Shown: in pieces, positions 23,804 to 26,048 of the stretch | Position numbering within the stretch: the first letter of the stretch is position 1 | How the letters are laid out: the number at the start of each line of letters is the position of its first letter | Source of the DNA: a virus | Lineage: Duplodnaviria; Caudoviricetes | DNA: 47,957 bases | Virus record (IMG/VR): IMGVR_UViG_3300011102_000151 | Coordinates: 1-47,957 of that record | Direction: 5' to 3' (one strand) | Program-made: the position numbers and the translations under genes | The notes under the pieces: model-generated | What the model was told of the DNA's origin: nothing | The model's database searches: none | The model's input: only the letters and a program-made list of their open reading frames with translations

Positions 23804-23957
23804 ACGGCAGCCGAACACCGCCACCGAACTTTGCGCAATCGTTGCGCAATGTGCTGGAAATGACGCCGGGTGAAACAGCGTGATTCCAAGGGTTTAGCCG
23901 GCGCGTTTCGTGCGCCGCGCTGCGCAACGGCAAAATCGGCTAAGTGCTTGAAAAATA

Positions 23958-24007
23958 TGGTGCCCAGGGCCGGAATCGAACCAGCGACACGCGGATTTTC
24001 AGTCCGC
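23958..24007 (-). other. attP core: 3' half of tRNA-Phe(GAA)
   Basis: GCGGA-CTGAAAA-TCCGC anticodon arm, GCTGG-TTCGATT-CCGGC T arm, CCTGGGC-A-CCA end; 5' half absent; IHF consensus AATCAGCTAGTTA at 24023-24035. Confidence 0.9.
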
Positions 24008-24080
24008 ATGGATTTGTAGAGTAATCAGCTAGTTACGTCAACTTTGCGCGGTTTTTGCGCAGTGCAGAAAATGAGAGGCG

Positions 24081-24296
24081 GTGATTGTGCATGACATTGG
24101 TCGCTGGGGTTGGCTTTCGCTGATCGCCATACTTTGCGTGTTCGGCGTACTGATCCACCGGGGCGGCCAGGAAGTCGATCGCCGTGCCGCCGAATGCCGG
24201 GCTGCTGGCGGCGAATATTTCTACGCCAGGGGCGCCGAAATGTGCATCGACAAGAAACACGTTATCGATATCGGAGAGAGGATAGGTGATGAATGA
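24081..24296 (+). CDS. Small membrane protein
   Basis: One TM segment then C.AAGG...C; GAGG RBS. Confidence 0.55.
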   Translation: MIVHDIGRWGWLSLIAILCVFGVLIHRGGQEVDRRAAECRAAGGEYFYARGAEMCIDKKHVIDIGERIGDE

Positions 24297-24831
24297 TGAA
24301 CAGACGGTGCAGCACACCGATGGCCTGCTGCGAATAGATCCTGACCACCCCTGCGATATCCAGACGGCTGACGGATCGCTGGAAATCGCCATGCTGGATT
24401 ATGACGTGGCAAGCGACTTCCCTGCGCCGCCGATTGATGTTGCGAAAGCGAACGGTCGGCGCATTGTCGCCTGCTGGAACGCCTGCGCCGGCATCAGCAC
24501 CGAAGCGCTGGAACGCCTGCCCGTGCCGTTCGCCGACGCGCTCAGCCAGCAGTTCAAGGACAGAATGGATCAATGCGGACTGCTCGCCGCGCGCGTGGCC
24601 GAACTGGAACAGCAACTGAACGCAGAAAAGGCGGCAGCCGTCCGCGAACGTGATCGGTTTCGTGATGCTGCAGCGATGCGCAACCGACTGCTGGCGGCTG
24701 CAGAAACGGCGAAGGAAGAAATGTGCAACACCGTGGCGCCGCGCACCAGCTTTACTGATGCCGTCGACGCGCTGGACGCCGCCATTACGGCCGCCGGCGG
24801 CGCGTCGCTGCTGCAGAACCAGGCCGAATAA
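24286..24831 (+). CDS. Hypothetical phage protein
   Basis: ANGRRIVACWNACAGI motif common in phage accessory proteins; coiled coil. Confidence 0.7.
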   Translation: MMNDEQTVQHTDGLLRIDPDHPCDIQTADGSLEIAMLDYDVASDFPAPPIDVAKANGRRIVACWNACAGISTEALERLPVPFADALSQQFKDRMDQCGLLAARVAELEQQLNAEKAAAVRERDRFRDAAAMRNRLLAAAETAKEEMCNTVAPRTSFTDAVDALDAAITAAGGASLLQNQAE

Positions 24832-24864
24832 CGAACACCACCACCACAACGAGGAACGCACGAA

Positions 24865-25089
24865 ATGGCACAAGCACGAATTTACAAGGTGACCGCACCG
24901 GGCCAGCACGCGCCGCGGATGGTCCGCGCCGGCACGCGCGCGCAGGCGATCAGGCACGTCGTCGCCGACACCGTGTTCGCCGCGGTCGCGTCGCAGGATG
25001 ATCTGGTTTCCATGCTGCAGGACGGCGCAACGATCGAATCGGCCAGCGCCGACCCTGATCAGCTAGATATCGAACAGGTGCAGGCGTAG
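24865..25089 (+). CDS. Conserved small phage protein
   Basis: GAGGA RBS; RIY.V...R.VRA.T.AQA.RHV. Confidence 0.7.
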   Translation: MAQARIYKVTAPGQHAPRMVRAGTRAQAIRHVVADTVFAAVASQDDLVSMLQDGATIESASADPDQLDIEQVQA

Positions 25090-25108
25090 CACCGGCGCGC
25101 GCCGGCGG

Positions 25109-25117
25109 TGCTATACT
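25109..25117 (+). promoter_or_regulatory. Extended -10 promoter for the non-coding region
   Basis: TGCTATACT 7 bp before the first RNA stem. Confidence 0.6.
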
Positions 25118-25124
25118 GTCGGCA

Positions 25125-25492
25125 CGCATTCGCATGCACCCTATGACTGGTGTGAAGCCGGGTCGCAACCGGCAGGCAGCACGTCCGAAAGGAATGTCGC
25201 GGTTCGAATCCGCGGATAGGGTGCATCCGAATGCGGCGAATGTGCAGGCCGATGCACAAGTGACTTAGGGGCGATCCCGGCCCCAAGGCGCAAGCGGAGT
25301 CACTGGGAATGCCGGAATTCGGTGCCGGCCGCCGCAGCCAAATACCAAGCACCGTGCGCATGCAGCCACAGGCTGTTCGGGAAACCGATCGGAAAGCCGG
25401 AAGCGTTAGCGGGCCTATCTCCAGCCCCGAAGCGGTGCCAGCCGCGGGGAAGCGCGCAGGCCGGTGAATAAATGCGAAGCCGTGTGGTTCAT
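25125..25492 (+). ncRNA. Cluster of three structured RNA domains (tRNA-like, kissing-loop junction, multibranch)
   Basis: Long closing stems 25125-25144/25216-25235, 25232-25238/25330-25336, 25360-25374/25478-25492; canonical T arm; several GNRA loops; no credible ORF. Confidence 0.75.
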
Positions 25493-25529
25493 GGCCGGCA
25501 GCCGCGCCGGTGGCGACAGAGCGGCGAAC

Positions 25530-26048
25530 CTACCTCACCAGCGCGTTATAGGCGTCGCGCACCGCGTTATAGCGGTCGATCAGCGCGTTTCGCTCCCGCA
25601 CCACTGCGTCGCATTCTCCGGCGATGCGGACAAGATCATCAGCAGCTGACGGCAATAGTTCGGCTCGCGCTTCTGCGCCAGGTCCGCCGGCAGCGCCGGG
25701 ATCTGCGCCGGTGACGGCGGCACACTTGGCGGGGATTGACAGGCGCTTATTTGCAGCGCGCAGATCAGCGCGCAGCTGATCAATCCGGCTTTTCGCATCG
25801 GCTTCCACCTTGTGGCGTTCTTCGTCCTGCTTCGCGGTGATATCGGCGACCGCCTGTTCTGCCGTCCTGGCGCGCCGTTCGGCGTCCGCCACGGCTTCGG
25901 CATGGCGCTGCGCGGTGGCGGCGATCTCGGCCTTGTAGCGGTCGGCTGCGCGGCCATAGCCGGCGCTGTAGACGCCGACAGCGGCCGCCACCAGCAGCGC
26001 GGCGCCAGCGATGTACGGCGCGGCACGCAGCAGCCACGCAGGCATCAT
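25530..26048 (-). CDS. Rz-like inner-membrane spanin
   Basis: N-terminal TM, coiled coil; ATGA-coupled to endolysin. Confidence 0.85.
   Translation of the reverse strand: MMPAWLLRAAPYIAGAALLVAAAVGVYSAGYGRAADRYKAEIAATAQRHAEAVADAERRARTAEQAVADITAKQDEERHKVEADAKSRIDQLRADLRAANKRLSIPAKCAAVTGADPGAAGGPGAEARAELLPSAADDLVRIAGECDAVVRERNALIDRYNAVRDAYNALVR
25580..25798 (-). CDS. Rz1-like outer-membrane spanin nested in Rz
   Basis: Alternate frame; ISAC lipobox, Pro-rich mature part. Confidence 0.8.
   Translation of the reverse strand: MRKAGLISCALICALQISACQSPPSVPPSPAQIPALPADLAQKREPNYCRQLLMILSASPENATQWCGSETR

Follow-up and report, generated by a model that had tools for sequence, protein, structure and literature searches.

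A tRNA mimic that lacks an anticodon arm and carries an extra hairpin in its D loop was found in the temperate phage IMGVR_UViG_3300011102_000151. The structure of this element is real, and its conserved core consists of the tRNA elbow and the D-loop hairpin, the latter being identical in this phage and in Acidovorax phage ACF1. Anticodon-less tRNA mimics are a known kind of molecule; what appears to be new, judging from sequence comparison, is a mimic conserved between unrelated phages whose D-loop hairpin matches one in the small RNA D of phage T4. No description of the element, of the second cloverleaf RNA that follows it (unit 2), or of the hairpin shared with RNA D was found in the literature searched, which was made up largely of the main texts of open-access papers.

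The window, that is, the whole stretch of 47,957 bases that was analyzed, encodes a contractile tail, an integrase, and a lysis cassette, as identified by comparing 68 ORFs with PHROGs. A betaproteobacterial host is likely because the closest named relatives of the capsid are Bordetella phages (54%). The mimic sits in a 440-nt non-coding gap between a small operon on the plus strand (ending at 25089) and a convergent Rz gene (ending at 25530). Positions 25092-25105, immediately 5′ of its extended -10 element, form a perfect G+C palindrome that is possibly an operator or a hairpin. Elsewhere, an O-antigen-type acyltransferase gene (PF01757, 22814-23803) adjoins the integrase gene, and past both of them, on the minus strand at about 23950-24010, lies the 3′ portion of a tRNA gene, T arm included, which drew no ARAGORN call and is likely the phage attachment site. 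The contig ends (47942-47954) in a 13-nt copy of the start of the mimic's T arm, perhaps a second T arm that was cut off.

All parts of the element lie on the plus strand. It is preceded by an extended -10 promoter element without a -35 (25109-25117), recognized from the sequence, and transcription is predicted to start at about 25124, the first base of the closing stem; a two-hexamer promoter scan gave no site at the element because the -35 is absent. The fold begins with the 5′ strand of a long carrier stem (25125-25144), the inner 6-8 nt of which form an acceptor-like strand, and ends with the 3′ strand of the acceptor-like and carrier stem (25215-25235), whose last three nucleotides overlap the acceptor-like stem of unit 2. 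The two arms of the carrier stem, 25125-25144 and 25216-25235, form 8 + 11 = 19 bp flanking one C-C mismatch. A GA bulge and the pair C25147-G25215 beside the T stem (25145-25147) are identical in ACF1, and acceptor bulges at the same place also occur in loci L019, L056, and L303 and in the L308 group. The stretch 25148-25183 holds U8 and R9, the D stem (25150-25153 with 25179-25182), a D loop with G18-G19 (25175-25176), and A21; folding alone predicts this D stem weakly (P = 0.09). Within the D loop is the inserted module (25154-25175), composed of GAA, a 5-bp stem, a 7-nt GUCGCAA loop, and A-G, with 25157-25173 as the hairpin proper. A 3-bp tetraloop stub (25184-25193), free in its loop sequence and with pair changes in ACF1, replaces the anticodon arm, and a canonical T arm follows (25198-25214).

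An earlier, sequence-only reading of the same DNA had listed the -10 element, the 19-bp arms with their C-C mismatch, the D arm and its insert, the GAAA hairpin, the T arm, and the lack of CCA, all of which proved correctly placed; the pair C25147-G25215 under the 2-nt GA bulge and the 7-nt loop of the inserted 5-bp hairpin had been overlooked. It had also expected no canonical tRNA call and proposed checks against Rfam and for covariation. ARAGORN indeed found no gene in the window copy, and Rfam gave no match at the gathering score and nothing over the element at E ≤ 10. The element folds more stably than its shuffled versions (z = -4.11; 0 of 200 shuffles equally stable). A descriptor of the anatomy, written after the anatomy had been seen, matched once in the window, once in ACF1, and in none of 300 shuffles.

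When positions 25090-25540 were searched by BLAST against 50,697 phage records, two records were returned, of which one was real: ACF1, with 36/37 nt identical (E 1e-7). The two copies align without gaps over 87 columns, extending past the BLAST block. Among the 26 pairs compared, 11 change on both sides, 14 are invariant, and one, in the D stem of ACF1, breaks; none of 500 shuffles reached this pattern, and slid structures paired 32-42% of cells versus 98%. The double changes fall in the acceptor-like stem (6/8 pairs), the stub (2/3), and the T stem (3/5), and they are unbiased since they lie outside the block through which the homolog was found, where 11 of 16 pairs change on both sides and none breaks. 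In the insert, 0/5 pairs and 0/7 loop letters differ; this identity is partly a matter of ascertainment because ACF1 was found through the identical block, and it could also reflect the recent exchange of a patch. At E ≤ 1e-3 there is no further DNA match between the phages, and matches, at 32 and 24%, were obtained for 2 of the 26 proteins tested. The elbow nucleotides (U8, G18, G19, the T loop, and the 15-48 pair) are present in both copies, with position 14 being G or shifted by one.

The idea of a non-decoding tRNA look-alike is thus backed by the covariation with ACF1, together with the insert-less family described below. Two features that had been emphasized at the outset are present in the window copy and are not conserved. 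The GNRA loop at the anticodon position is AGCG in ACF1, with four of four letters different, and the 19-bp closing stem is an acceptor-like stem of 8 bp there, corresponding to the inner 8 bp of the carrier stem and followed by a CCA-less trailer. The absence of a 7-nt anticodon loop was borne out in both copies, each having 3 bp and 4 nt between the D and T arms in place of the 5-bp stem and 7-nt loop of a canonical tRNA. Folding of the ACF1 copy is no more stable than that of its shuffles (z -0.08); the best fold of this copy nonetheless shows the same arms. The copy lies directly after a sigma-70-type promoter and heads about 800 non-coding nt. This stretch (L368:10804-11640) is structured and has no similar record among the 50,697 phages, and the sequences downstream of the element in the window phage and ACF1 have nothing in common.

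The "extended acceptor stem" is a carrier that holds different cargo in close relatives, and it lies outside the conserved mimic. It is regarded as such because the relatives exchange the cargo and because long stems abut the unit-2 family elsewhere. In the relatives' contigs (X3, X4, and X7 from one study, X2 from another), the promoter is retained along with the stem's first 5-13 nt, and the sequence rejoins the window at 25348 or 25371; the letters in between, 145 in X2 and 165 in X3 and X4, are unlike those of the window, and the first 30 replaced letters contain no D arm. The -10 element is nearly unchanged in X2-X4 and X7, and the promoter stretch is better kept than the coding flanks, with no difference over 30 nt in X4 and one over 37 nt in X3 and X7. 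Of 35 loci scored with a stem finder that allows no bulges and that missed visible stems in L268 and L356, 7, the window included, have a long stem immediately 5′ of the unit-2 RNA. The stem of L293 resembles that of the window, and in P1 and KP591P1 the stem cargo contains a T arm. In the model phage P1 (L356:1410-1515, after tRNA-Asn and tRNA-Thr) and in L358 (520-630), the long carrier stem 5′ of a unit-2 RNA encloses a variable insert with a T arm, in a layout like that of the window.

Unit 2 (25233-25340, plus strand) is a second cloverleaf RNA, with complementary outer loops and no Rfam match. Its phage family is widespread and comprises 40 viral loci (L263-L302) from one pattern, in addition to P1, HK633, CUS-3, IME11, and PAJU2. 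With six loci outside the parsing, 30 of 31 parsed copies share one pairing between the outer loops, and the window copy alone has a compensatory pair. CCA stands just after the stem in 12 of the 31 parsed copies, and the window copy ends in a CCA-like tail. Alone, unit 2 folds as a cloverleaf (z -1.7); joined to the mimic, formation of its acceptor-like stem is in competition with that of the carrier stem (P < 0.05). Unit 2 would be a more plausible RNase P substrate than the mimic, and a cut at 25233 would free the latter. Its identification as a C4 antisense RNA was considered and rejected, there being no Rfam match, RF01695 included. The third non-coding block (25348-25530, plus strand) is kept in relatives that lack the mimic and unit 2 as such, and its fold is not better than that of shuffles (z -0.84). 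A terminator search after the mimic found none in either the window phage or ACF1.

A BLAST search with the 38-nt block returned 220 records, mostly T-even phages, with 20/21 nt identical at E = 2 on annotated rnaD. The matched site, including that of RB3 rnaD (20/21 nt), corresponds to the hairpin at the 5′ end of RNA D, whose flanks agree as well, and there is no similarity between the window and RNA D beyond these 21 nt. RNA D homologs were detected in 736 records. In the seven that were aligned, chosen for spread and including one from Vequintavirinae, the RNA always opens with the module of GAA, stem, GUCGC loop, and A-R-G (7/7); the GAA and the loop are kept in all seven, changes in the stem keep its pairing, and the middle of the RNA varies. 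Since RNA D lacks a T arm and obtains from model R2 much the same score as a real tRNA-Ser (21.1 vs. 20.6 bits), the hairpin module is the only part common to both RNAs. The blocks invariant in the body and 3′ end of RNA D are absent from the mimic. From these alignments the two hairpins are likely, although not proven, to be homologous, the match having E = 2 and having been recognized after the fact. By our estimate, chance is unlikely despite this E value because the match falls, flanks and all, on a hairpin that is conserved in a known small RNA. T4 RNA D (species 2 RNA, rnaD; NC_000866.4 71053-71171) resembles the mimic in its 5′ GAA flank, 5-bp stem, and GUCGC loop and in being a small phage RNA beside tRNA-like genes. 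It differs in having no D or T arm and another body, in carrying the hairpin free at the 5′ end, and in ending in CCA. Late expression has been described for T4 RNA C and RNA D, the function of both being given as unknown (PMC9697503 and PMC3014915, both in part). Some larger structured RNAs that share the mimic's D-arm type (L014:476-558; L098, L154, L161, and L163 at around 1480-1600) likewise have a GUCGC hairpin, placed either in the acceptor stem or where the anticodon would be. It is possible, if rather doubtful, that phages of E. coli and of Betaproteobacteria have mounted the GUCGC hairpin, as a portable module, on unlike scaffolds so as to capture one conserved host factor. The scaffolds would be the 5′ end of T4 RNA D and the D loop of the anticodon-less mimic, and the factor might be one of translation or defense, a proposal to be taken with the same reserve.

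Relatives without the insert were gathered by pattern scans of viral and GTDB sequences followed by parsing, with a script that required the stems to pair. In total, 14 distinct tetraloop-stub mimics were obtained, comprising the two full copies and 12 without the insert (L303, L308, L324, L335, L337, L341, L344, L352, L019, L056, L059, and L125), many of which are apparently stand-alone genes. A GNRA loop occurs in eight of the 12, all from the scan that demanded it, and in none of the four found otherwise, so that GNRA does not hold as a family trait. At least six T in the 8 nt just 3′ of the T arm were seen in 9/12 and a -10-like hexamer just upstream in 11/12, counts taken from AT-rich, pattern-picked loci and without a shuffle control. 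These T-tracts and hexamers suggest that the scaffold is likely able to exist as a product of its own, without any downstream RNA to set free. L303 weakly matches SpF41 (RF02435), with 34.3 bits and E 0.024 against a cut-off of 52. The D-arm type of the element occurs in 6 of 207 canonical tRNAs of the compared loci, three of the six being tRNA-Gln, which gives a weak hint of a tRNA-Gln-like origin.

A third full copy was not found in 49 other whole records or in 98 other loci, nor among the eight matches of the one GTDB pattern scan that covered Burkholderiales prophages. Viral pattern scans (one of which covered 17 of 64 parts) yielded no further full copy. Scanning metagenomes with the promoter as the pattern gave 22 unrelated loci, and the third-block pattern gave eight. 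No copy was present in the loci around the upstream 74-aa ORF (10 loci) and the endolysin gene (44 loci) or in Bordetella phage PBb001, and plasmid searches returned nothing real.

Compared with known systems, the element shares U8, the D stem, G18-G19, A21, the T arm, and a purine 15 with U48 with canonical tRNA (RF00005) and differs in its 3-bp stub, bulged acceptor, 17-nt D-loop insert, and lack of CCA; in place of a 7-bp acceptor with a free NCCA or a 3′ end to which it could be added, the GA bulge and a 13-bp extension are found. The SpF41 model, of a Streptococcus sRNA, likewise has an acceptor-like stem with a bulge, a short tetraloop arm, and a T arm; it is without the D-loop hairpin, and neither the window copy nor the ACF1 copy matches it (cut-off 52 bits). 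The bacterial Y RNA YrlA (RF02553) is also a non-decoding mimic of the tRNA elbow on a long stem, whereas its arms are permuted (T, acceptor, D), it has a 5′ GNCGAAN0-1G motif, and it is encoded near Ro60 (PMC4201824, in part). The arm order here is D, stub, T, without an Rfam match, and no Ro60/TROVE gene was detected among the 68 ORFs compared with PHROGs and the 28 compared with Pfam (294 ORFs listed). Like mascRNA and t-elements, the mimic has a tRNA-like fold with a reduced anticodon arm; those RNAs have free ends and are processed by RNase P and Z (PMC4919922, in part), while the ends of the mimic are locked in a long stem and it has an extra conserved hairpin. The odd tRNAs described in PMC5389517, in the part available, bear anticodons and are therefore unlike the element.

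Tentatively, and with somewhat less than even confidence, we favor a non-decoding, tRNA-shaped scaffold that acts in trans by displaying a partner-binding hairpin, probably as a decoy for a host factor that RNA D would also bind. The RNA would be transcribed from the sigma-70-type promoter, with its first nucleotide at the stem base, and would be released from the array by an RNase P cut at the neighboring cloverleaf (25233) and perhaps by RNase III in the carrier stem. The tRNA fold may provide stability, and the GUCGC hairpin would be held out to a putative host partner, likely titrating it. Positions 16/17 of the tRNA D loop, where the insert is located, point outward. The display reading is favored because the elbow and the outward GUCGC hairpin are what selection keeps; it is tempered by there being two full copies found and by the position at the head of an array, which also fits a role in cis. 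The sequence-only reading had proposed a decoy for anticodon nucleases or other tRNA-sensing defenses. A decoy acting through the anticodon position is unlikely because the GNRA loop and the 19-bp stem are not conserved; if the element is a decoy, its bait is the D-loop hairpin or the elbow. Bait of the PrrC type is excluded for the stub, since PrrC reads the sequence of the anticodon stem-loop (PMC3014915, in part) and the stub has 3 bp and a free loop.

Several other explanations account for part of these observations. The element may be the cis-acting head of an RNA array, a protective 5′ cap and processing handle (for RNase III in the carrier stem and for RNase P or Z where tRNA-like units join) that matures the downstream RNAs in the way of t-elements and mascRNA, a role that we consider unlikely on balance although the setting speaks for it. 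In both phages the mimic is the first module 3′ of the promoter and heads a longer RNA array with no terminator found behind it, long stems abut the unit-2 family in the loci counted above, with T arms in P1 and KP591P1, and the stem of ACF1 is short and runs into its CCA-less trailer. However, a cis-acting head leaves the invariant inserted hairpin unexplained, relatives replace the element yet retain the flanks of the array, and hardly any leader would remain for cleavage if transcription begins where predicted. The D/T elbow is bound by RNase P together with an extended leader and the 3′ RCCA (PMC4919922, in part), whereas the would-be leader and trailer here are paired over 13 more bp. Because of this pairing and the lack of CCA, the element is poorly built as the RNase P/Z signal that had been suggested for releasing the downstream RNAs, and the modeled geometry of the window copy argues against a t-element or mascRNA type of processing signal. 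We judge it improbable that the element belongs, as one domain, to a longer folded non-coding RNA, with the GUCGC loop docking in the tertiary structure as a T-loop variant whose stem has the size of a T arm, instead of binding a protein. The hairpin has the dimensions of a T arm (5 bp ending in GG/CC, 7 nt), and GUCGC hairpins occur in the larger RNAs at L014, L098, and L161 and in 6 of 36 family regions versus 20 of 1312 background windows, a comparison in which the motif was chosen after the fact, the hits are non-independent, and one of the six overlaps the acceptor strand. Such a domain fits poorly with downstream sequences that have nothing in common; moreover, no complement of the 7-nt loop is present in 24001-25600 and no GCGAC in T4 RNA D or RNA C.

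The insert also resembles an anticodon stem-loop (5 bp and 7 nt with U33, CGC, A37, and A38), and ARAGORN reads the ACF1 copy as Ala(cgc) by taking the insert as the anticodon arm. PrrC accepts a 17-nt stem-loop (PMC3014915, in part), so a relocated arm baiting an anticodon nuclease specific for tRNA-Ala(CGC) is conceivable. It is nevertheless very improbable, given that G at position 32 appears in 7 of 195 distinct ARAGORN calls of the compared loci, several of which are mimics, and that RNA D has UA or UC at positions 37-38 while E. coli phages keep the same CGC. We give hardly any credence to a decaying tRNA pseudogene or a real, oddly folded tRNA-Ala. GenBank labels the ACF1 copy "tRNA-Ala", the authors of that siphovirus reported the gene as tRNA-Ala(CGC) (PMC8851203, in part), the D arm and the T arm are of tRNA type, and insert-less relatives pass the Rfam tRNA cut-off at 3/8 loci. 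Against this, the fold that ARAGORN gives the ACF1 copy contains mismatches in the acceptor and D stems and does not work for the window copy, and neither copy has CCA. The 11 double changes versus one break largely refute an ordinary tRNA pseudogene. Equally remote is a C4/CI-type antisense RNA acting on neighboring phage sequences: an array of cloverleaf RNAs facing lysis genes in a temperate phage with an integrase would suit it, whereas RF01695 has no match in the genome at E ≤ 10, the insert and T loop have no local complement, and no complement of at least 10 nt lies at equivalent places in both phages.

The swapping of cargo implies that, downstream of a conserved promoter, temperate phages maintain small-RNA cassettes that can be exchanged, and phage "tRNA" annotations, such as the tRNA-Ala of ACF1, can hide mimics. 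The 21-nt module common to RNA D and an unrelated tRNA mimic offers one specific loop that can be mutated and can serve as bait, and because it points at that loop, the question can be addressed in plain T4 and E. coli K-12. If the portable-module reading is true, finding the host factor would explain T4 RNA D.
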